From NCBI GenBank assembly GCA_048886185.1, contig JBHLKY010000003.1, positions 1-32,000 of the forward strand: a stretch of 32,000 bases of DNA, written 5' to 3'. Positions 13,754-24,768 of the stretch are shown here, piece by piece (position 1 is the stretch's first letter; every line of letters starts with the position of its first letter). A program made the translations under genes and the position numbers. The stretch comes from Candidatus Hermodarchaeota archaeon. Lineage in GTDB: Archaea > Asgardarchaeota > Heimdallarchaeia > Hodarchaeales > Hodarchaeaceae. The notes beneath the pieces are model-generated. The model did no database searches and had not been told where the DNA came from. It saw only the letters and a program-made list of their open reading frames with translations.

Positions 13754-14257
13754 TTATTGTATATTATTAACATTCTTGGGACGGACGACGATTTTTATGA
13801 AAAACTTATCAACTTCTAGTGTTAATTTAGCTTTCATTATTGGATGCTTTAAGTATTCTTTCTGTGATGGATCAATTATTAATTTAGATTTTATCCGTTT
13901 ATTAATAGTTGCAATTGATGCAACTCCCCCCTCCTCATTTATTGATACACTTAACAATCTATTATCTAAATCAATACTCAACCTTTTGAATACATGTAAT
14001 TTTTTCCGTTTTTTTTTGTATGCTAAGACCACCTTATCTCTAGCTCTTACTACCAAGTTTGCGGGAATGTTATATTTCAACCTAACATCCTTATAAGTCA
14101 AATGATGAAGCGCGACTGAATTAAAACAACCCTCATTATAGGCTATTTCACTAATATAGTTACAAATCTCTCTATAGAGTCTAATGGTATTTTTTAATCT
14201 TGAAAAATCTTCTTCTGTAATCTCCAGTTTCCCTGAAATAATATAATTAGTTTCCAT
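13754..14257 (-). mobile_element. TnpB (IS200/IS605-family) N-terminal half only; RuvC domain absent
   Basis: Typical TnpB N-terminal pattern (GKLE.T.E...L..T..LYREICNYIS; LHHLTYKDVR.KY.I.ANLVVRA; SIDLD.R..S; A.L.....FFIKIVV) ending in a stop where GVDLG would follow; no tnpA and no RuvC remnant seen in the AT-rich downstream DNA. Confidence 0.8.
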
Positions 14258-14464: not shown

Positions 14465-16189
14465 TTACGCAAATTTTAATATGGTTGATCTTTTCGAGAA
14501 TCGTCTAGCTCTATAATCTCTCATTTTTTTCTCTACAAGTGGGTAACCGTTGTCTTCTAAAATCATATTTAGACGATCTACTTCGGATAAAATAGTAAAC
14601 GAATTCGGATCAACCGTTAAACATTTTCCGTCAACAATATTGGTTTGAATTTCACCACATGCTACATCAGATCCCTTCAAATGTGGGGCATCAAGAATTC
14701 CTATTTTAACCGCTCTTGCTAATGTTAATGGATGGATTAAAGGATCTTTAACTGATTCTTCAGATATATTCTGAAGCGCCTGAAAAATCAAGTAAGCGTC
14801 AGATATAAGCTCTAATTTGTACTCCTCAAGCTTTGGATCTAACGCGATTGAAGGTAAACCCCTCACGGAATTTGAAATTACTTTTCGAGCAATTTTAGTA
14901 CTCTCCAGCACATCTTCAGATGTTGCTGCATGATCAGCTTCACAATAGCTGACCACATGGACAATATGAGGTTTAATAAACATAGCCATTTGAATAGAAG
15001 AGGCTAGCTGCCCCATTGCAAGATGAGGATCCTCGGGGAAGCTCAAAAGGCCAGTACGAACCTGACGATAGGTGGTGAAGGTTTCAGTACGTAGACTTTC
15101 TATCAGCTCAGTCTTCGCTAACATTTTCGCTAAATCATATCTAGGTGCTAGACCAATAGGTGTATTAAACATCAGCTGGGAAATATAATTATGTACACCA
15201 GCCATTTTTGCGTTGTACGCTCCTAGGAAGGCTGCTGCAACAGCAATGGCATCAGGGGCGGAACGGAGACTCCAATGATGTGACTCATTGGCTTCAAAAG
15301 GAATATTATGTGCCCCATGCCAGACAATATTTGATTGGTTCTCTATGATTGCTTCTTGTAATGCCCGATTACTTCGACCATCTAATTCAGAATACCAAAA
15401 TAAGGGAGTAGCTCCCCAAGCATTGTTTATCGTGTTTTTAAGCAATTTTGCCATTTTTAGTAAATTTCTGGTACCTGAATAACAGCGTAGTAAAGGGTAA
15501 TTTCCACACCTCGATGCCTTGTAAAAACTAATTAAATCTTCTTTTGAACGGATTGGAACACCTCCTGCTCCCCTTTCGGACTCTTTCATCTTTTCGGGGC
15601 CAAAAAAGTGTTCTTGAAAATTTTGGTCTGGACCTATCGAGATAATATCAATGACTTTTGCTGCTGCTATTGTTTTAATACCGTTTTGGGTTTCCTCAAC
15701 AGAAGGAACACCAAAATGGGCACGTAATAAGGGGTAAGGAGAATAAAATTTTATTCGATCAATTAAATTGATTGGAATGGATTTCTTTTCTTTTGAAGGG
15801 GATAATGAATTCCTTAGGTATTCAATTACATCCCTTTCTGTTGTTTTCCCATTAAAAAGGCGATGGAATATTCCAAACCTTCTAATAGCTTTGCATACAG
15901 GACTTGTACCTCCAAAGATCCACTTTTTCTTTCTCATTTCAGGAGTGATTTTGTCATTAAGTTCCTTTACAATCTCAATACCTGCTTCTGGTGTTAAACG
16001 ATAACTTAAAGCGATTATTTCAGGATCTAATTTATTAATTTCTGTAATAATATTTTCGATTGTATTTGGAGGACGTAAGAACGATGTTTCATAACCTTGT
16101 TCTCGTGCAATTTGCATGAAATTAAATACTCCAGCAACATGAACACAAGAACCTAATGTGGCACATAATATTTTTCTCCTAATGGTCAT
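14465..16189 (-). CDS. Cobalamin-binding domain fused to a TIM-barrel domain (putative B12-dependent mutase, glutamate-mutase S+E-like)
   Basis: DxHxxG-type motif CVHVAG, then ALSYRL and IFGG of the B12 Rossmann domain; C-terminal ~400 aa with QVRTGLLSFP and VVSYCEA that resemble glutamate mutase E motifs (from memory). Confidence 0.7.
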   Translation of the reverse strand: MTIRRKILCATLGSCVHVAGVFNFMQIAREQGYETSFLRPPNTIENIITEINKLDPEIIALSYRLTPEAGIEIVKELNDKITPEMRKKKWIFGGTSPVCKAIRRFGIFHRLFNGKTTERDVIEYLRNSLSPSKEKKSIPINLIDRIKFYSPYPLLRAHFGVPSVEETQNGIKTIAAAKVIDIISIGPDQNFQEHFFGPEKMKESERGAGGVPIRSKEDLISFYKASRCGNYPLLRCYSGTRNLLKMAKLLKNTINNAWGATPLFWYSELDGRSNRALQEAIIENQSNIVWHGAHNIPFEANESHHWSLRSAPDAIAVAAAFLGAYNAKMAGVHNYISQLMFNTPIGLAPRYDLAKMLAKTELIESLRTETFTTYRQVRTGLLSFPEDPHLAMGQLASSIQMAMFIKPHIVHVVSYCEADHAATSEDVLESTKIARKVISNSVRGLPSIALDPKLEEYKLELISDAYLIFQALQNISEESVKDPLIHPLTLARAVKIGILDAPHLKGSDVACGEIQTNIVDGKCLTVDPNSFTILSEVDRLNMILEDNGYPLVEKKMRDYRARRFSKRSTILKFA

Positions 16190-17334
16190 TTCTCTAGTAC
16201 ACTCTCCTGTTTCATTATTTCAATGTAGAATTCATCACCAAGAGTCATATACTCTTTTAGTAAGTAAAATGGGATTCTATGTAGCCTCAATGACTCAATA
16301 GTTCTACCAAGAGATCTATAATCTTTATTAAACATACAATTAGCTAAATTAATAATGGCATCAATGAAAGGAGTTTGAACTTCAGCTTCTTCTCCAAAGC
16401 TAGATAATGGAATTAAACCAGTTGGAATATCTTCAAAGATATACCGGACATCTAAAGTTGATGGTGCCATAACGTTTTGATATTCTCTTGTGTTATGAAT
16501 TGTTTCATATAGATTTTTCCCATTACTTCCATAGACCGAATTCAACCATTTTTGTAATGTAATCGCCCGTACTCCATATGCATCTGCTACCGCAACTCGT
16601 TCATTGTCCATTTTTTCTAAAAAAGAAGCAACAGAGGGAGATATTCCATCAATATAATGTCGATAATTAACTTTTGGATCCTCACATCTAGCGACATTCA
16701 ATAATAATGGAGTAGGATGAAAAATTGCACCAATATTATCAAAAGAAGTGTTTAAAACCGATTCAGTTTCCCAAAAAGCGCTGTGTAGATCTTTCAAGAA
16801 TGGTATAGTTTCGTTATTATCGCAGGATGGAAATGCTGAAACTGGTACTCTTTTTTTTATCCCAGAAATTGTTACTTCGCTTGGTTTTGAACATCGTGAA
16901 ACAAATAGAAGGGATTGAGCTTCTACGACTTGTGGTTTAAACAAGCCATTATTATCTCGTATGGAATTTCTAACTTCAATTGCGCCTCCAGTTCTCCCTG
17001 GATTTAATACAACGATTTGATTATCATCCAAATAAGGAGCAATTCTTGCTGCTATTTCCTTATGTGCATTAGCGGTTGTTACCACCATTATTAACTTACT
17101 TTCTTTAATAACCTCATGAATTGAGGGTGAAACCAAATCAATGTTGAAATGTCCTTCTAATAGTCCTGAGGATATAATACCGTTATTCTCTTTTACACCT
17201 TCAAGAACTGACCTAGACCGATTCCAAATCTTCACTTTATACCCTTTTGATTTTGCATATGCTGCAAAAGCATGTCCTCCATTTCCTAACCCAAGAATAG
17301 ATATAGAGTCATCTTGAATCTTTTCGTTTTTCAT
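16186..17334 (-). CDS. NAD/NADP-dependent opine (octopine/nopaline) dehydrogenase family protein
   Basis: Rossmann ILGLGNGGHAFA, LNPGRTGG, NIGAIFHP, RYIFEDIPTGL. ATG 17334 follows AGGAAGG; the track uses TTG 17352. Confidence 0.88.
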   Translation of the reverse strand: MKNEKIQDDSISILGLGNGGHAFAAYAKSKGYKVKIWNRSRSVLEGVKENNGIISSGLLEGHFNIDLVSPSIHEVIKESKLIMVVTTANAHKEIAARIAPYLDDNQIVVLNPGRTGGAIEVRNSIRDNNGLFKPQVVEAQSLLFVSRCSKPSEVTISGIKKRVPVSAFPSCDNNETIPFLKDLHSAFWETESVLNTSFDNIGAIFHPTPLLLNVARCEDPKVNYRHYIDGISPSVASFLEKMDNERVAVADAYGVRAITLQKWLNSVYGSNGKNLYETIHNTREYQNVMAPSTLDVRYIFEDIPTGLIPLSSFGEEAEVQTPFIDAIINLANCMFNKDYRSLGRTIESLRLHRIPFYLLKEYMTLGDEFYIEIMKQESVLEK

Positions 17335-17532
17335 ACGGATCCTTCCTTTCAAAAAATATAACTATAATCCTTTTATGCTCTTTATTCGCATTTTAAATAA
17401 TTCTAGTCTATTAAAAGCTAATTTAATGTATGATCTATTGCTAAATTGCTGATTATCCCATTAAAAAAAAGAAATTCGGATCAAAAAATCAGTTTCCTAG
17501 GAAATCAGAAAGATTATCTCTTTTCCACTAGC

Positions 17533-17550
17533 TTTATTCATATGAATAAA
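17533..17550. promoter_or_regulatory. Perfect 18-bp palindrome TTTATTCATATGAATAAA, candidate operator
   Basis: Equals its own reverse complement; lies about 200 bp upstream of the opine dehydrogenase start. Confidence 0.4.
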
Positions 17551-17683
17551 CCGAGAAAATTGTTGTAATTCCCTACATAATTAAACGTAATTAAACTTGT
17601 TTATTAATTTTTTGGATTTATTAACTGTAAATATATAAATAAACCTACGACTTCAGTGTGAAAAAGCTATAAAATTTGCATAG

Positions 17684-17695
17684 TTCATATATGAA
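17684..17695. promoter_or_regulatory. Perfect 12-bp palindrome TTCATATATGAA, candidate operator
   Basis: Shares TTCAT/ATGAA half-sites with the palindrome at 17533. Confidence 0.3.
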
Positions 17696-17946
17696 AATAG
17701 CTTAATTTTAATATTAAACTATTTTTTTATGTTTTGGGTAAAAATAAAACCAAAATTGATTTATTTCATATTAAATAATTCTGTATATAATATTGAATAT
17801 TGAAAATGAAAATCATGTGGAAAATAAATGGATAAAAACTACCTATTGTTATATTCGAGCTGATTGGGCTTCCTACACATTGAAGAAATACATTAAGGGG
17901 ACATATATCATCATTTAGTGATCTACCAATGGCTCTCTTCTGTTAA

Positions 17947-19080
17947 TTATTCTCTTGAATAATAGCTTGAGGGTTCAATTCCATGGATTTTCATTAGTTC
18001 AGCTACTTTTCCACTAATTACAAGTGGGGCCTTTTGTAAGTCTGAAAGGTTCCGTGACCCTGTAAGGAAGCAAGCCAACTTAAGCTGATATTCTATTTCC
18101 TCTATTTTTTGTACAACTGCCTCGGTAGAATGTTTCTGAACAACAAATAGAAAGGGAATGGCCATACCACCTGCATCTGCTCCCAACGCAATTAACTTTG
18201 CAATATCCAATCCATTTCTTACTCCACCTGACCCAATGATCACTCCATTAAAATTTTTTATTGCAAGGACTGTACTAAGAGCTGTAGGAACTCCCCAATC
18301 CCAAAACACTTCACCTGTGTTTTTATATTTGGATAAAGTTGTTCGAATTGCTTCTACACCAGCCCATGAGGTTCCTCCAGCTCCTTGAATATCTATTGCT
18401 TTAAACCCCATCTTTTTGATTTGTTTAATGTCATGAATACTGAAACCTGATCCAACCTCCTTGGCAATGACAGGGATGGAACAATTTTGAATCAACTGCT
18501 CTATTTTTTTATGTAATCCACTTAACTGGGTGTCACCTTCAGGTTGAATTGCTTCTTGAAGGGGATTAAAATGGACTGCAAGTGCATCAGCGTCAATCAT
18601 ATCAATGATTTCTTGGAATTGAGATTCAGTCAGTCCTTGCGCGAGCTGCCCTGCTCCAATGTTTCCAATGATAAGTGAACTGGGTGCGTTTTCTCGAACC
18701 ACATTGAAAGATTCCCTCACATCTTCATTCTCTAAAGCTGCCCGCTGACTCCCTATTCCCATACCAATGTTTGTCTGTTCAACGGCTTGAGATAATAATG
18801 CATTGAGTTTGTGTGTGAAACCATGTCCTCCAGTCATCCCTGATATTATCAGTGGAAGAGAGAGTTTCTTATTAAAAATTTTAGCAGAGAGGTCAACCTC
18901 ATCAAGATTTAAATCAGTGGTTGCATGATGGACAAATGAGATATCTTCCAATCCTGTTGTGATGTTTCGGGCTTGAACATCATGTTCCAAGCAAATTTGT
19001 ATGTGAGCCAACTTCCTGTCTGAAGTTAAATCGCCTTTTTTCTCAAGTTTGTTAATTACATCTTTATATTCAGTTTCCAT
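17947..19080 (-). CDS. fni: Type 2 isopentenyl-diphosphate delta-isomerase
   Basis: RKLAHI, GMTGG, GSQRAA, NIGA, HFNPLQE, KEVGSG, GAGGTSW, SGGVRNG. Confidence 0.97.
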   Translation of the reverse strand: METEYKDVINKLEKKGDLTSDRKLAHIQICLEHDVQARNITTGLEDISFVHHATTDLNLDEVDLSAKIFNKKLSLPLIISGMTGGHGFTHKLNALLSQAVEQTNIGMGIGSQRAALENEDVRESFNVVRENAPSSLIIGNIGAGQLAQGLTESQFQEIIDMIDADALAVHFNPLQEAIQPEGDTQLSGLHKKIEQLIQNCSIPVIAKEVGSGFSIHDIKQIKKMGFKAIDIQGAGGTSWAGVEAIRTTLSKYKNTGEVFWDWGVPTALSTVLAIKNFNGVIIGSGGVRNGLDIAKLIALGADAGGMAIPFLFVVQKHSTEAVVQKIEEIEYQLKLACFLTGSRNLSDLQKAPLVISGKVAELMKIHGIEPSSYYSRE

Positions 19081-19300
19081 TGTCTTAATGCTCCTTCAGT
19101 CTTTTTGAACTGAACTTACAAGCAGAAACCTTTGGCACCACCATATCCAGCCCTTCTACTTTCATGTATTTCTGTAATGGTATTCTGATCCTCTAGTTGT
19201 GAATATCAAAAATATTTCTATATGTTATTTGATGCTTTCTTAATCTCTTTTATGAGCATAAAAAAGCCTGTATTCTCTTCGATGAACAGATTAAATAGGT

Positions 19301-19726
19301 TTATTCTTGTTTGAATCTCTTTACGTGCTTTGTAATTGTTGTTGAACTTTTTTCGATATATTTGGATCTATATACATATCCTGGAATCCAGATAACAAAT
19401 CCAAATAATAATCCTAAAAAGAATGTTATTGGGTCGTTCCAAAGAAAGATTTTGTGAAAAATAGTTATAAAAAAAACCAAAAAACCAGATAGAACCCGTA
19501 TGGGATAATGGAGTCTATTTGAAAAAATTTGATGAAGTAAATAAAAAGACAGAATTATGGTGTGACCACTCACTGGAATACTTGTTACAATTCGGATTAA
19601 TGAAAATGTACCGATAATAATACACTCAGTAGACAAAAGAATACGAACATGAATCCCGAGTTTTTTTATCCACATCCAAAGTAGTTCACCCACGAGAATC
19701 CCGAATGGGAAAAATATCGGGATCAT
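19301..19726 (-). CDS. Uncharacterised membrane protein (SGH motif, possibly PAP2-like); frame is open further upstream to 19909
   Basis: Several TM segments, PVSGH and HKIFLWND motifs; 61 extra sense codons upstream without a canonical start. Confidence 0.65.
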   Translation of the reverse strand: MIPIFFPFGILVGELLWMWIKKLGIHVRILLSTECIIIGTFSLIRIVTSIPVSGHTIILSFYLLHQIFSNRLHYPIRVLSGFLVFFITIFHKIFLWNDPITFFLGLLFGFVIWIPGYVYRSKYIEKSSTTITKHVKRFKQE

Positions 19727-19951
19727 GTATATTGGTGGCGAGAAAAGAATTAATGTTTCTGTTGCAGTAATAACAGGTGGGTAACCAACAATATGGAAAT
19801 AAAACCCAGCGATGATAGTTATAAATAATCCAGTGCTATAGACAACTAGTAATTCACCTTTTGGGGAATTATATTCCGATGAAATTACGCTAGACCTCTC
19901 CTCTGATTGTTATCATTTTCCCCCATTAGCATTATCATGAATAATAGTATC

Positions 19952-20524
19952 TCATTTTTCATCTTCGTGCCATCGTTTATATTTCTCATTAGGAATATTC
20001 AAACAGTCTAATACTTTCCCAGTAATGAAATCGAATAAGTCCTGAATAGTTTGAGGTTTGTGATAAAACCCTGGACTTAAAGGAAGAATAATTGCGCCAT
20101 AAGTGGCGAGCTTCGATAAATTCTGGAGACAGGGCGGACTTAGAGGTGTCTCCCGTATTCCAATTATCAAGGGTCGGCGCATTTTGAGCATAATGTCAGC
20201 TGCTCGTGAAATTAAATTCCCAGTATTCGCATTTGCAATGTTACTAACTGTTTTAACCGTAGCGGGTATAATCACCATACCATCGATCAAAGTTGAGCTA
20301 CTAGAAAGGGGAGCATTCATGTCCTTACTATCATAAGATCGAAAAGCTATTTCTTTAATTTCTGCGCTCTTAATACCAACTTCATCATAAAGTACATATT
20401 CAGCCCATTTACTAATAATAACATGAGTTTCAATTTTACTCTCTATCAGAGCTCGGATAACTTCAATTCCGTATTGTATTCCAGAAGCGCCAGTTAAAGC
20501 AACGATTATTCTCTTAGGAACCAT
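19952..20524 (-). CDS. ubiX: Flavin prenyltransferase UbiX
   Basis: ALTGASG, PLSSSS, PATVKT, RETPL, PGFYHKP. Confidence 0.95.
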   Translation of the reverse strand: MVPKRIIVALTGASGIQYGIEVIRALIESKIETHVIISKWAEYVLYDEVGIKSAEIKEIAFRSYDSKDMNAPLSSSSTLIDGMVIIPATVKTVSNIANANTGNLISRAADIMLKMRRPLIIGIRETPLSPPCLQNLSKLATYGAIILPLSPGFYHKPQTIQDLFDFITGKVLDCLNIPNEKYKRWHEDEK

Positions 20525-20635
20525 CAGAATTCACATCGTAATTCTTTGATTCTTTTTATTTCATAAAGTAATTAGTATGATTAATAAAAAAAGAATAGAT
20601 GGATACGATAGGTTGGTGAAAAGGGAAATTAGGAT

Positions 20636-21025
20636 CTAATCCACTTCAACAACGCCAGTATCAGCATCTAGAACTACTTTCGACCCAGAGGTTATTTTTG
20701 TTGTATCTATTTTGTCTACGCAGGGAATTTCACCGATGATACACCCAACAGCTACAATAGCTTCACATTCTTGAAGAATAAGCGCCTTTGGCCCTTTCCC
20801 AGTTTTAGCCATTTGATAGATCACATACGAGCCGACTGTTGACCCTTTACCTGTAGGGAAAACAAGAATCTTGTCTGTTGTGTCTACTCCTTCCAATTCA
20901 TGGCCTTTTTCTACTATAATCCCAGTCTCTGGATCGACTCCACCGTAGAATGAAATACTGTCTTTTGTTACCAGAGCTTCTCCTTCGATCTTTCCTTGAT
21001 AGATTTTTCTACCTGTTAGCTTCAT
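20636..21025 (-). CDS. Phosphomevalonate dehydratase small subunit (AcnX swivel domain, DUF126)
   Basis: ISFYGGVDPETG, GKGSTVGSY; ATGA overlap with the large subunit. Confidence 0.9.
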   Translation of the reverse strand: MKLTGRKIYQGKIEGEALVTKDSISFYGGVDPETGIIVEKGHELEGVDTTDKILVFPTGKGSTVGSYVIYQMAKTGKGPKALILQECEAIVAVGCIIGEIPCVDKIDTTKITSGSKVVLDADTGVVEVD

Positions 21026-22203
21026 TTTAAAGCCTCCTCAATACATTCATCGACAGACATCAGTTTGACCGCAAATTTATTCCTACCTGATCCATAATAG
21101 CACATTTTGGCTGAATCAGAAGCTAAACCATGGAATCGTCCTTTGATTGGAGCGACAACACAGCAAGTATCTGCAGCAATTTTTGCTCCAGAGGTTTCGA
21201 TCATTTTAGTAAAACCCATTCGGTCTGCGATTTGTTTTGTAGGACGAGCTGTGGTTATCCATATCTCTTTCTTTGGATTAACTTTCTTACCTTCAAGTTT
21301 TTTGGCAATATATTCTAATTCTGCAAGAGAAGCGTGTGGACAACCCAAGCTTATGAAATCAATCTCTGTATCTTCGTTGAGATCTGAAATAGCTCTTCTT
21401 ATATCATCTTCAGTTACTTCTGTGGTTTCAGAAGGAATTGCATCAACTCTATCAGGAGTGATACTTTCCATATGGAATAATGCTACTCCTCCATATGTTG
21501 CGTATGAAGCACAAAACGACTTAAGCTCTTCAACAGAAGCTTTGGGAATTCCAGTGATATAGCTAATCTTCTGTCCAAGGCGATCCCCAAGAACTTTACC
21601 TAACGCTCCAAATTGGAATGTTCCGTCAACCTTAGCCTTTACTTCTACTTTGATTTCAGGTTGTCGGTTCTCATCAAGATGAAAGCCATATTCTGGGGTT
21701 TTACCCACAAGAGCTGCACTGAGGGCACTGGGTCCACCTTCTCGATTCGTTCGTGCACCAAGTACAGAGTTTGCATAACAGACAGCACTACTTTCTGACC
21801 ATGCTATATGTTGGCCGTAATGAGGTAGATTACCATAAAGATAAGGAGTGCAACTGCAGGTAGTGATTACACCCATCTTTCCAAATGCGTCAACAACTCT
21901 GTGTTGGTTTTCTGCGAACTCTTCACTGATGGCTAATTTTTTCCATTCTTCAAGATCCATGCCAGCTGGATTAAGTGTAGTAAAAACTCGTACTTTTCCG
22001 TCAATAGCCATTTCAGCTAACCACTCCAAACCAGGTTCGTTTAAATTAGCATAGCTTACTCCAGCAATTTGGACGGATGTAATATCAATCATTCGTTTGG
22101 CGCCATAAATATCTCCAAGAGATATTAAAATTTCCATAGCTTTTTGGGTAGCTTTTCCATACTTTCCTGAAGCCATATCTTGTTCTTCGGAAGTTAATTC
22201 CAT
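21022..22203 (-). CDS. Phosphomevalonate dehydratase large subunit (AcnX, DUF521)
   Basis: QIAGVSY, TTLNP, CSCTPY, WSESSA, GARTNREGG, LGCPHAS, DTC, SAK motifs; mevalonate-pathway context. Confidence 0.92.
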   Translation of the reverse strand: MELTSEEQDMASGKYGKATQKAMEILISLGDIYGAKRMIDITSVQIAGVSYANLNEPGLEWLAEMAIDGKVRVFTTLNPAGMDLEEWKKLAISEEFAENQHRVVDAFGKMGVITTCSCTPYLYGNLPHYGQHIAWSESSAVCYANSVLGARTNREGGPSALSAALVGKTPEYGFHLDENRQPEIKVEVKAKVDGTFQFGALGKVLGDRLGQKISYITGIPKASVEELKSFCASYATYGGVALFHMESITPDRVDAIPSETTEVTEDDIRRAISDLNEDTEIDFISLGCPHASLAELEYIAKKLEGKKVNPKKEIWITTARPTKQIADRMGFTKMIETSGAKIAADTCCVVAPIKGRFHGLASDSAKMCYYGSGRNKFAVKLMSVDECIEEALK

Positions 22204-22218
22204 AATTTTATCTCCTTA

Positions 22219-23526
22219 TTATTCTAAATAATCCTTTAAATCTACTTTAGGAAACTCAGCACGAGCGAAGCTTTTACCTTTGGTAACCAATGGTGCAGTA
22301 AAATCGAATCCAATTTTATTAGTAATTTTGGTTCCAGGTTCAGCACTTGGGTCTAAGCTTGACCCTGGTTCTTTCCCAATATCAACGAGGTCTTTATCAG
22401 CCTGGAAACGGGTAGCCATTGACCATTCGACCTCTAAGGGATTATAAATATCAATATCCTTATCCACCACAAAGACATGTTTACAACTTCTATGGCCTGC
22501 AAAAGCAGCGTGTATAGCTTTCTTTCCATCATCTTCATTCTGTTTATCAATTTTAACGATAGCATGCAACCAAGAAGACCCGCCAGGGTTTACGTTCACA
22601 TCGAGGCATTTGACACCTGCTTCATTCACAGATTTAAAGATCGTAGGTTCGCGTGGCATTCCCATCAGGACTTTATGCTCTAAAGCTCCTGGAACAAGAG
22701 CTTGCCAGATGGGATTCTTTCTGTGAGTAATCTTCTTAACTTCAAAGACTGGTTCGTCTCGGACAATATCATATGTTTCAGTGAGATCGATAAATGGGCC
22801 TTCATCAGAGCGGTCACTCATGAAAACCTTCCCTTCGAGGACTACTTCGCATCCTGCTGGGATCAGAAGGTCCACTGTTTTCGCTTTTGTCACTTCAGTT
22901 TTTGAAAGAGCATTAGCGATTTCCAGTTCGTTGATACCAGTCTTTACAGAGGTTGCAGCAGCAACAAGGATGTTGGGAGTGTTTCCAACACAATAGACTG
23001 CTTCCACTTCTCCTGTTCTCTCTAGAAACTTGTAAAAATCTCGTCCTTTGATTATTCGAGTACTCATCCTATTCTTTTCAAACTGCATTGCACGATGGAA
23101 ATCTAGGTTTTGACCGTACTCGGGATCTTTAGTCACAACAACTGCTGACGAGATATATCGACCTCCGTCTCGTTCGTTGTGTTTTAGAATTGGAAGTCTA
23201 TCGAGATCAACTTCATCCATAATTACCTCTTGACAAGGAGCACCTGTAATTTCCTCTGGTAAGCTTCGGTTGTCAATTGCTGCAGTGAGTTTAGGAATCA
23301 ATTGTGCCGTAGAAATCTTAAAATAATCAGCTATGCTTTCCTTTGTGCAGAACACATTCCCTGCAACCTGAAAATCCGAATATCCCTTCACTTTTTCAAA
23401 TAGAAGTGGAGTTGGTTCTGCTGCCTTTAAAACAGCAGCAGCCTCTATATCGATATTCACCTCCTTACTAATTTTAGTAATTAATCCCCTTTTACTAAGA
23501 TTTGCTAGATATTCACGAAAATACAT
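22219..23526 (-). CDS. UbiD-family decarboxylase, probable anhydromevalonate phosphate decarboxylase
   Basis: ERDGGRYI, FHR, EGPFIDLTETYD, VDKDIDIYN...W..ATRFQ, KIGFD; located between mvk and acnX. Confidence 0.9.
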   Translation of the reverse strand: MYFREYLANLSKRGLITKISKEVNIDIEAAAVLKAAEPTPLLFEKVKGYSDFQVAGNVFCTKESIADYFKISTAQLIPKLTAAIDNRSLPEEITGAPCQEVIMDEVDLDRLPILKHNERDGGRYISSAVVVTKDPEYGQNLDFHRAMQFEKNRMSTRIIKGRDFYKFLERTGEVEAVYCVGNTPNILVAAATSVKTGINELEIANALSKTEVTKAKTVDLLIPAGCEVVLEGKVFMSDRSDEGPFIDLTETYDIVRDEPVFEVKKITHRKNPIWQALVPGALEHKVLMGMPREPTIFKSVNEAGVKCLDVNVNPGGSSWLHAIVKIDKQNEDDGKKAIHAAFAGHRSCKHVFVVDKDIDIYNPLEVEWSMATRFQADKDLVDIGKEPGSSLDPSAEPGTKITNKIGFDFTAPLVTKGKSFARAEFPKVDLKDYLE

Positions 23527-23551
23527 TTTTTCACACCTTTGTCACTGTAAA

Positions 23552-24493
23552 TTATACTCCGATAAGAGTTTTCCACGCGGGATGCCCCGCGTCTTTTAAT
23601 GCGTTGTATACTTTGTTTTGAAGTCCAGAACTAGGAGTTAATGCAATAATATTTCCTCCACGACCAGTACCAGTGACCTTGGCCCCTAAGGCACCGTTAT
23701 CCCTTGCAAGTTTGACCATTTTATCCAAAACATCATTTGATACCGTGATGTCCTGAAGTAGTTTGTGATTCTTATTCATAAGTTGTCCGACTTTCTCTAA
23801 TTCCATCTTTTCTAGTGCTTCGCGACCTGATTCGATTACTTCTTGATATTCTTTAACTATCCCCTCGAACCACGCAGGATCCTCCTCCTTCTTTTTCCGA
23901 ACGTCTGCAACGACTTCTGCGGTGTTAGCTGTCATTCCTGAGCTAGCAATCACTAATTCAATGGGTTTTTCCAGTTTGATTGTTTCGATTGTATTGGAGC
24001 TCCCCTCAAGATTTCGTATAAAATAAACCAAACCACCAAATGTTGACGCGGTATTATCTATCCCACTAGGAGTTCCATGATACCCCTTTTCTCCTTCATA
24101 GGCAGCATTATTTATTTTTGTGTCATCCCATCCAAGGTTAAATTCATCGTTAATGGCTCTCGCCAGTGAAACACAACTTGCTGCAGAAGCCCCGACACCG
24201 CTAGCACAAACAAGATCTCCCCCAAAGGTTATTTTCAGGGCTTTATCCTCTAAGTTAATTCCCATAAAATCTATGATGTTTTTGATCGATTCTTTCTGTT
24301 CATCAAACTTCTTTTTCTTATACCCAGGAACTTCAGGACGGTTATCATTCAGCTCATAACCTGTCCCATCTTTAGATTCAACGATACATGTGGTACTATC
24401 ACCTATTGCGGATGCGAGTGCTGGTACACCATATACCACAAAATGTTCTCCAAATAAAATTGTTTTTCCATAACCAGATCCTTCACCAGCCAT
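23552..24493 (-). CDS. mvk: Mevalonate kinase
   Basis: GKTILFGEHFVVYG, GVGASAAS, PSGIDN, KVTGTGRGG. ATG 24493 follows GGTGGA; the track uses GTG 24505. Confidence 0.93.
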   Translation of the reverse strand: MAGEGSGYGKTILFGEHFVVYGVPALASAIGDSTTCIVESKDGTGYELNDNRPEVPGYKKKKFDEQKESIKNIIDFMGINLEDKALKITFGGDLVCASGVGASAASCVSLARAINDEFNLGWDDTKINNAAYEGEKGYHGTPSGIDNTASTFGGLVYFIRNLEGSSNTIETIKLEKPIELVIASSGMTANTAEVVADVRKKKEEDPAWFEGIVKEYQEVIESGREALEKMELEKVGQLMNKNHKLLQDITVSNDVLDKMVKLARDNGALGAKVTGTGRGGNIIALTPSSGLQNKVYNALKDAGHPAWKTLIGV

Positions 24494-24768
24494 TTTTTCC
24501 ACCAAATCCTTATTTCTATAAAATTCATCTGATTTTTTTTGTCTTTTATTGTTTTCTAAGAGAAGCTAAAAAACTCTTCTAACTTTGATTAGCAATATAA
24601 AATCCTTTTTGTCAGCATCCTGTTCCAGATCAGTCTTATAATTAATACTTATAACTAAATATGAACGCTTTTAGCCAAATGAGTATAGGTGTATAGTTAA
24701 AGTAGAATTCTAGGAGAATTTGGTATTGAAGAAATATTGAAATAACTCTCATTAGTACTCTAAAACAT

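Follow-up and report, generated by a model that had tools for sequence, protein, structure and literature searches.

An opine dehydrogenase and a GlmE-like B12 protein form a conserved two-gene module in Asgard archaea and bacteria

A new family of B12-dependent proteins was predicted from 11 bacteria by Zhang, Rodionov, Gelfand and Gladyshev (2009; PMC2667541), who describe its genes as always adjoining an opine dehydrogenase gene (pfam02317), with Ddl and AsnB genes nearby. In the same year, the Hore_09740/09750 operon was described as restricted to thermophilic anaerobes of a few genera (Mavromatis et al., 2009; PMC2626281). On the dehydrogenase side, six hot-spring opine dehydrogenases (mODH-45, -47, -48, -49, -55 and -582), whose closest known relative is an Arthrobacter enzyme, were found to prefer L-aspartate, L-glutamate and cysteate together with pyruvate, and mostly to use NADPH (Telek et al., 2024; PMC10787698). 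Here we analysed a locus of this kind from an Asgard archaeon. The window, by which we mean the whole stretch of 32,000 nucleotides that was analysed, comprises positions 1 to 32,000 of contig JBHLKY010000003.1 (assembly GCA_048886185.1; Candidatus Hermodarchaeota archaeon, Hodarchaeales) and carries a gene for a 382-aa opine dehydrogenase followed by one for a 574-aa B12-binding protein, which we call the mutase for its fold.

The window copy is an ordinary member of this described yet uncharacterised module. The original prediction, made from the DNA letters alone, had offered the pair as a candidate undescribed pathway. That proposal holds in part: no published pathway assignment was found, but the pairing itself had already been published (PMC2667541, PMC2626281). 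Literature searches for opine dehydrogenase with B12, cobalamin, mutase or the cyclic di-AMP (c-di-AMP) riboswitch returned only the 2009 paper, and no assigned pathway or function.

The two genes form a conserved module

Both open reading frames (ORFs) lie on the minus strand of the window (16186..17352 and 14465..16189). The dehydrogenase gene comes first, from an ATG at 17334 to a stop at 16186, and the mutase gene follows, from an ATG at 16189 to a stop at 14465. Their minus-strand junction reads ...GAGAAATGACCATT..., in which the dehydrogenase TGA stop and the mutase ATG share the bases ATGA (16186-16189). A Shine-Dalgarno (SD)-like GGAAGG (17341-17346) precedes the ATG at 17334, and therefore the TTG at 17352, which merely opens the longest frame, is probably not the dehydrogenase start; translation likely begins at ATG 17334. 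The spacer between the dehydrogenase and the upstream type-2 isopentenyl-diphosphate isomerase (IDI2) gene is AT-rich and 612 bp long (GC 0.28 over 17001-18000), and an Rfam search of the window found no element, thus none in this spacer (17335..17946). The overlap, the end coordinate 17334 and an AT-rich upstream region of about 600 bp had all been read from the sequence in the original prediction, and each of them stands.

We then asked how widely the two genes travel together. A scan with one genome per species recovered at least 593 mutase relatives, of which the best 80 loci were examined, with neighbourhoods derived from our own ORF calling and clustering. Of the 69 loci with room for the dehydrogenase, 65 had it immediately upstream on the same strand, overlapping the mutase gene by -4 in 22 and by -1 in 17; in three of the four exceptional loci it lay just downstream instead. 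These linked loci span Bacillota, Aminicenantes, Actinomycetota, Ignavibacteria, Chloroflexi, Thor/Promethearchaeota, Bathyarchaeia and others; the same pair is present in Halothermothrix, Anoxybacter and Theionarchaea, and a divergent 624-aa mutase subfamily likewise has an Octopine_DH gene before it. Among 151 evenly sampled Asgard genomes, which are related so that counts are not independent, the mutase was found in 56 and the dehydrogenase in 56, with both in 54 and neither in 93. The two mutase-only cases were fragments at contig ends, and two further genomes had the dehydrogenase only. The pair is a conserved two-enzyme module, and the co-occurrence and adjacency that had been proposed as a check on the prediction are borne out in these samples. 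The nearest relatives of the window mutase come from metagenome-assembled genomes of Promethearchaeota and Hodarchaeales (80-82% identity), and its Halothermothrix orenii homologue (P0072) is 51% identical.

Two further features of the sampled loci deserve mention. Double modules or mutase copies were seen in Wukongibacter (G002, C1:5822637-5823107, the same locus as L088) and in a second genome (G259:C23), where two pairs lie ~9 kb apart. Frames suggestive of a dehydrogenase::mutase fusion (961 aa in L071; 648-664 aa in L081 and L086) had no match to the dehydrogenase family, and we rejected this possibility, reading as artefacts of a caller that takes the longest ORF both the L071 frame and the extensions of ~110 aa in L081 and L086.

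The window dehydrogenase matches Pfam Octopine_DH (PF02317) well above threshold (154.7 bits vs a cut-off of 30; 2.4e-45) and matches the Arthrobacter N-(1-D-carboxyethyl)-L-norvaline dehydrogenase (ArODH; 1BG6) over its full length (1.5e-78). Its N-terminus is a Rossmann domain with the motif GLGNGGHA, and in the alignment to 1BG6, ArODH residues H202, D297, R292 and Y293 correspond to H212, D308, R303 and Y304 of the window enzyme. The catalytic His212 and the segment R303-Y-x-x-E-D308 are invariant across 70 dehydrogenase partners of the B12 protein. The octopine/nopaline-type enzyme originally predicted is indeed an opine-dehydrogenase relative, with its catalytic residues intact.

Residues that govern specificity in this family narrow the likely substrates further. 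Double mutagenesis traced the preference for L-Asp to the combination of Arg at ArODH position 111 and Gly at position 198, and Arg at position 35 marks NADPH use (PMC10787698). The corresponding residues in the window enzyme are R120 and G208, both present in 70/70 B12-linked partners, and R45, which is Arg in 67/70. At the ten active-site positions of Table S5 of the hot-spring study, the window dehydrogenase reads R, Q, K, I, G, F, L, Y, R and Y, identical to mODH-582 and mODH-48, and the printed mODH-48 sequence has the blocks LYNR, LNPGRTGGALEF, NIGAIFHP and RYIxEDVPMSLVP in common with the consensus of the partner alignment. Judged by these residue signatures and by motifs compared by eye, the window dehydrogenase likely belongs to the acidic-amino-acid subclass, with acidic amino acids and pyruvate as its likely substrates; its cofactor is probably NAD(P)H, with NADPH favoured. 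The mODH enzymes are slow on Asp (kcat ~1 per second, Km 0.5-25 mM), and the substrates assayed did not include 3-methylaspartate (PMC10787698), therefore the native substrate may be a related acid.

A variant B12 motif and a barrel resembling glutamate mutase E

Next, we examined the mutase. Its residues 6-97 pass the Pfam B12-binding model (3e-8, 33.9 bits vs a cut-off of 32.1). In 30 diverse homologues the domain carries the motif xCxHxxG, in which Cys15, His17 and Gly20 are near-invariant, followed by SYRL and FGG; S62-x-x-L65 and G93-G94 are also present in the window protein. Cys15 aligns opposite the Asp of the GlmS motif SDCHAVG. Because the three residues are near-invariant, CxHxxG is a family trait and not an error, and the CVHVAG variant picked out in the original prediction proves to be family-wide.

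Searches of Pfam and NCBIfam with the mutase found no radical-SAM (CxxxCxxC), methyltransferase or pterin domain, in agreement with the earlier statement that radical-SAM and methyltransferase domains are lacking, and likewise none of the homocysteine-binding, pterin-binding, B12 cap and activation domains of methionine synthase. Many NCBI and UniRef records label members of the family 'methionine synthase' (P0007, P0011, P0014, P0016, P0047, P0063 and others). Judging by domain content, this label is misplaced, as only the B12 domain is common with MetH.

The rest of the protein was recognised by its predicted fold. An AlphaFold2 (AF2) model built on the homologue alignment scored 90.4 for predicted local distance difference (pLDDT) and 0.84 for predicted TM (pTM), and its top Foldseek matches in the PDB were glutamate mutase E chains (6h9e_B and 1cb7_B; E 4e-17, probability 1.00, ~445 aligned columns; TM on the GlmE target 0.65-0.67) at a sequence identity of ~15%. 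Lysine 5,6-aminomutase, ornithine 4,5-aminomutase and methylmalonyl-CoA mutases came next, and all of the top 36 fold matches were adenosylcobalamin (AdoCbl) isomerases. B12-dependent radical SAM enzymes gave weak fold matches only, through the B12 domain. At the level of sequence, Pfam Met_asp_mut_E (PF06368) remained sub-threshold on the window mutase (0.0069, 15.4 bits vs 26.6, residues 381-531), and one homologue (P0131) passes it with 27.5 bits over positions 21-383 of the 441-position model. PDB sequence searches with the mutase protein or profile returned B12 domains only and never GlmE; the barrel is therefore visible only to fold and profile-profile methods. The TIM-barrel-sized domain of the original prediction is thus found in a confident model, and the fold comparison proposed with it returned an AdoCbl-mutase barrel nearest GlmE and not a methyltransferase or corrinoid-partner fold.

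To compare individual residues, true GlmE genes from Clostridia were profiled against the mutase family profile (hhalign, local and global runs); one fetched GlmE aligns 1:1 to the crystallised protein over all 483 residues (bit score 1105.6). The second half of the barrel aligned consistently, and an FPxD motif is common to both families. The segments QVRTGLLSFP and VVSYCEA, which had first suggested GlmE, fall on GGFPxDE and K326..E330 of GlmE, and the near-invariant E417 stands opposite E330. We take K326 and E330 to be adenosyl-ribose ligands of GlmE, and R66/R100/R149, E171 and Y181, all invariant in the Clostridia alignment, to be its glutamate-binding arginine claw residues. This claw set is not found in the mutase, where R149 is opposite Tyr237, and R100 and E171 have no clear counterpart in an N-terminal part of the alignment that is of low confidence. 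The local and global runs disagree over the first three strands of the barrel, and we claim no mapping of R66 or R100; R156 of the mutase resembles R66 by motif only, the first-strand alignment being unreliable. By its modelled fold and the claw residues, the mutase is a GlmE relative whose pocket appears remodelled, and not a glutamate mutase.

Evidence on the form of cobalamin, all of it indirect, came from fusions and from the genome. Distant mutase relatives are fused to a PF13941 MutL domain, a GlmL-type ATPase (P0150, P0151 and P0158; L097:3908-7588), and the window genome encodes a CobA-type adenosyltransferase. CobS was not found in this genome, which together with the adenosyltransferase suggests salvage. 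From the MutL fusions and the CobA-type enzyme, which point to AdoCbl radical chemistry, we infer that the mutase uses AdoCbl. The MutL-fused relatives (1226-1266 aa) lie beside oligopeptide ABC ATPases and a C45-type hydrolase, without a dehydrogenase. In P0131 (L006:1174-3765), the mutase is fused to a glutathione-synthetase/RimK-like ATP-grasp domain and followed by a C26 peptidase. A complex prediction for the mutase (1-556) with the dehydrogenase scored 0.00, which gives no verdict in either direction.

Features of the window and of related loci
Feature	Position	Strand	Basis
Opine dehydrogenase gene, 382 aa	16186..17334	-	Pfam Octopine_DH 2.4e-45; 1BG6 1.5e-78; R120, G208, R45; 10/10 key residues as in mODH-582/-48
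Single-chain B12-binding / GlmE-like mutase gene, 574 aa	14465..16189	-	Pfam B12-binding 3e-8; AF2 pLDDT 90.4; Foldseek 6h9e_B/1cb7_B 4e-17
B12-binding Rossmann-like domain, residues ~1-135, with SYRL and FGG motifs	15785..16189	-	Alignment with GlmS, with the B12 domain of OraE and with corrinoid proteins
CVHVAG, residues 15-20, CxHxxG for DxHxxG	16130..16147	-	C15, H17 and G20 at >=90% in the homologue alignment; Cys opposite Asp of GlmS SDCHAVG
TIM-barrel catalytic domain (predicted), GlmE-like, residues ~140-556	14522..15772	-	R156, D188, R235/Y237, E299, R378, H411, E417; AF2, Foldseek and profile alignments
ATGA stop/start overlap (putative translational coupling)	16186..16189	-	Same -4 overlap in 22 related loci, -1 overlap in 17
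AT-rich upstream spacer with SD-like GGAAGG at 17341-17346	17335..17946	-	GC count; no Rfam element
Riboswitch-bearing loci	L008, L014, L017, L018, L023, L024, L025, L029, L031, L033, L035, L048, L050, L057		RF00379
AsnB homologues after the pair	L022:9656-11005, L054:10136-11464, L069:6445-7908, L085:9626-10969, others		

Gene neighbourhoods and the possible direction of the pathway

Neighbouring genes and regulatory elements offered clues to the role of the module. The unit is immediately preceded by a c-di-AMP riboswitch (RF00379, 89-118 bits; ~100-250 nt before the first gene) in 14 of 17 Bacillota loci, where the element stands upstream of either the dehydrogenase or a unit of ATP-grasp, dehydrogenase and mutase genes. 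Rfam found no c-di-AMP riboswitch in 7 non-Bacillota loci, nor in the window. Riboswitches of this class switch genes off at high c-di-AMP, and at the core of their regulon are potassium uptake, osmoprotection and the cell wall. In ~13 loci spread over many phyla, the pair is followed by AsnB-like genes, and 12 of the 15 intact copies are without the N-terminal Cys nucleophile. Ddl-like ATP-grasp genes are found in 13 loci, and TldD/PmbA gene pairs follow the module in Aminicenantes. This pattern of AsnB-like and ATP-grasp accessory genes resembles the AsnO/Ngg logic of the osmolyte N-acetylglutaminylglutamine amide (NAGGN). The Cys-less AsnB homologues start with MAGIAGI, MSGIAGI or MTGIAGI and recall beta-lactam synthetase-type relatives, and three copies keep MCG.

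Other neighbours appear to reflect lineage. We rejected several neighbours as lineage synteny, namely the His operon and a 1161-aa gene beside the pair in Actinomycetota, Lgt in Thermosediminibacterales/Tepidanaerobacter, and the 2-oxoacid oxidoreductase genes of Tissierellia, where the riboswitch stands between them and the pair. What surrounds the pair varies among Asgard genomes. A gene for transcription factor B (TFB; TFIIB-like) lies within 1-3 genes of the pair in six Asgard loci belonging to several families (L010:4620-5549, L104:9668-10639, L013/L114, L105, L108 and L111), which may reflect either synteny or dedicated regulation. In the window, a complete-looking archaeal-type mevalonate pathway operon lies upstream (17947-24505, minus strand), with genes for a GHMP (mevalonate) kinase, a UbiD-like decarboxylase, AcnX large and small subunits, a UbiX flavoprotein, a small membrane ORF and a type-2 IDI (FMN_dh). 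It adjoins the pair in other Asgard loci only within the same genus; we therefore treated it as unrelated and rejected it as a partner. Just downstream of the mutase, a 167-aa ORF (13754-14257, minus strand) is without a Pfam match.

We give about an even chance to a reading in which the two enzymes work on an Asp/Glu-type acid and pyruvate, the NADPH-type dehydrogenase and the AdoCbl-dependent, GlmE-like isomerase most likely making an anionic solute. The dehydrogenase would join an acidic L-amino acid (Asp or Glu type) to pyruvate via an imine, giving an N-(1-D-carboxyethyl) amino acid, and in reverse would split such a compound. The mutase would combine GlmS and GlmE in a single polypeptide, its His-on cobalamin domain handing AdoCbl to a barrel that performs a radical 1,2-rearrangement of the same acidic amino acid or of the opine, with the two enzymes presumably acting consecutively on one metabolite. 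The biosynthetic direction is favoured, in which an anionic rearranged Asp/Glu-pyruvate derivative would serve as an osmolyte or potassium counter-ion, and in some lineages could be further amidated or ligated by the AsnB-like and Ddl-like enzymes. Several observations weigh against this reading. The Asp of DxHxxG is replaced by Cys15 throughout the mutase family, which may affect cobalamin binding. In the profile alignment GlmE R149 is replaced by an invariant Tyr237 and K326 by Val413, therefore glutamate would not be bound as in GlmE. Given the slow activity of the mODH enzymes on Asp, Asp or Glu with pyruvate may not be the native pair. No MutL, AsnB-like or ATP-grasp partner was found in the window genome, nor a riboswitch, so that the osmotic link is borrowed from bacteria, and control by a riboswitch would be equally compatible with catabolism linked to uptake and with synthesis. 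A highly improbable variation has the mutase act on the N-(1-carboxyethyl) arm of the opine, an aza-analogue of 3-methylaspartate, and move the nitrogen from C2 to C3 without pyridoxal phosphate (PLP), giving N-(2-carboxyethyl)-aspartate or -glutamate (beta-alanine-type) for the Cys-less AsnB homologues to amidate or cyclise, as beta-lactam synthetase does with N2-(2-carboxyethyl)arginine. If true, B12 aminomutases would gain a new class, and beta-amino-acid derivatives a new route of formation.

The same two enzymes could also run towards breakdown, which we consider rather unlikely: an acidic amino acid carrying an N-alkyl group, imported or set free from necromass or peptides, would be isomerised by the B12 enzyme to an N-(1-carboxyethyl) amino acid, which the dehydrogenase would split oxidatively to pyruvate and Asp or Glu. 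An AdoCbl mutase followed by a dehydrogenase is the standard logic of lysine and ornithine fermentation, and this precedent counts for catabolism together with the presence of both aminomutases among the fold matches. The carriers are mostly anaerobic peptide and necromass fermenters, peptidase genes (TldD/PmbA, C26, C45) and oligopeptide ABC genes lie beside some members, and a major facilitator superfamily (MFS) transporter gene follows the pair in two Asgard loci. Genes for 2-oxoacid:ferredoxin oxidoreductase lie upstream in Tissierellia; however, the intervening riboswitch indicates separate transcription units. The NADPH-type cofactor signature is more typical of reductive biosynthesis, the ATP-consuming AsnB-like and ATP-grasp partners fit synthesis better, and the loci showed no conserved transporter or regulator of the sort typical for a catabolic operon. 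It is more doubtful still that the mutase is nothing more than a glutamate mutase in a single chain (L-Glu to (2S,3S)-3-methylaspartate) and that the dehydrogenase condenses 3-methylaspartate with pyruvate. GlmE is the best structural match, and acids of Asp shape are preferred by the mODH subclass, although its members are slow on Asp itself, with 3-methylaspartate outside the substrate panel (PMC10787698). In addition, no canonical GlmE and no convincing methylaspartase was found in the window genome, which takes the usual methylaspartate route out of consideration. Against a plain glutamate mutase stand the ~15% identity to GlmE, the sub-threshold PF06368 match of the window protein, the Tyr opposite claw residue R149 and the want of a clear counterpart for R100; moreover, the dehydrogenase-first order and strict pairing suggest a dedicated substrate. 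Finally, it is very improbable that B12 is used without radical chemistry, in a methylcobalamin/corrinoid methyl-transfer protein or a cobalamin-sensing/regulatory protein. Many NCBI records are named methionine synthase, the best solved sequence matches of the B12 domain are corrinoid proteins, and none of the classical His-on mutases has the Asp-to-Cys change. Yet the Pfam search detected no homocysteine, pterin, cap or activation domain, the large domain is a mutase barrel by fold, with AdoCbl isomerases throughout its leading matches, and the MutL/GlmL fusions in relatives would be sensible only for an AdoCbl enzyme needing repair.

Few cobalamin-enzyme families to which no reaction has been assigned are as widespread as this one, with at least 593 species representatives in one scan and presence in ~37% of the sampled Asgard genomes. 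The evidence narrows the candidate inputs to Asp, Glu or 3-methylaspartate, pyruvate, NADPH and AdoCbl, and suggests low c-di-AMP, i.e. potassium or osmotic stress, as the physiological condition. Solving the module would extend the set of AdoCbl isomerase reactions, would probably reveal, in anaerobes, a new solute or fermentation route, and would correct many 'methionine synthase' labels.

Comparison with described systems

Among characterised opine dehydrogenases, Arthrobacter ArODH (CENDH; 1BG6) has the Rossmann motif, the catalytic His and the RYxxED segment in common with the window enzyme. It differs at the specificity positions, with A111, N198 and D34/I35/D36 where the window enzyme has R120, G208 and N44/R45/S46, and its cofactor is NADH and its preferred substrates are hydrophobic amino acids. 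The hot-spring mODH enzymes are closer, as they share the Arg/Gly specificity pair, the Arg at position 35 and 10/10 of the tabulated active-site residues; they were treated as stand-alone biocatalysts, with the B12 partner unmentioned (PMC10787698).

For the mutase, the nearest described system is GlmS/GlmE of Clostridium cochlearium (1CB7, 1CCW, 6H9E), which combines a His-on B12 Rossmann domain with a TIM barrel, an arrangement predicted for the mutase too, whose modelled barrel has the same fold. The likeness extends to a Glu opposite the adenosyl-binding E330, to FPxD, and to the fusion of mutase relatives to a GlmL/MutL-type ATPase. In contrast to GlmS/GlmE, the mutase is one polypeptide with its B12 domain N-terminal, carries CxHxxG, has Tyr opposite R149 and Val opposite K326, is only ~15% identical and remains sub-threshold in Pfam; it is never beside methylaspartase, its partner being an opine dehydrogenase. 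Lysine 5,6- and ornithine 4,5-aminomutase resemble it as AdoCbl TIM-barrel isomerases coupled to an NAD(P) dehydrogenase acting on a C-N centre, but the mutase here is without a PLP-binding domain or accessory subunit, and the window partner is an opine (imine-condensing) dehydrogenase and not an amino-acid dehydrogenase.

The module of 2009 is the same family with the same pfam02317 adjacency, in which only a MetH-like B12 domain is recognised in the available portions of the two reports (PMC2667541, PMC2626281). Beyond what those portions describe, the present comparison adds the GlmE-like barrel, the MutL fusions, the acid-specific signature of the dehydrogenase, the c-di-AMP control in Bacillota and the distribution of the module among Asgard archaea.

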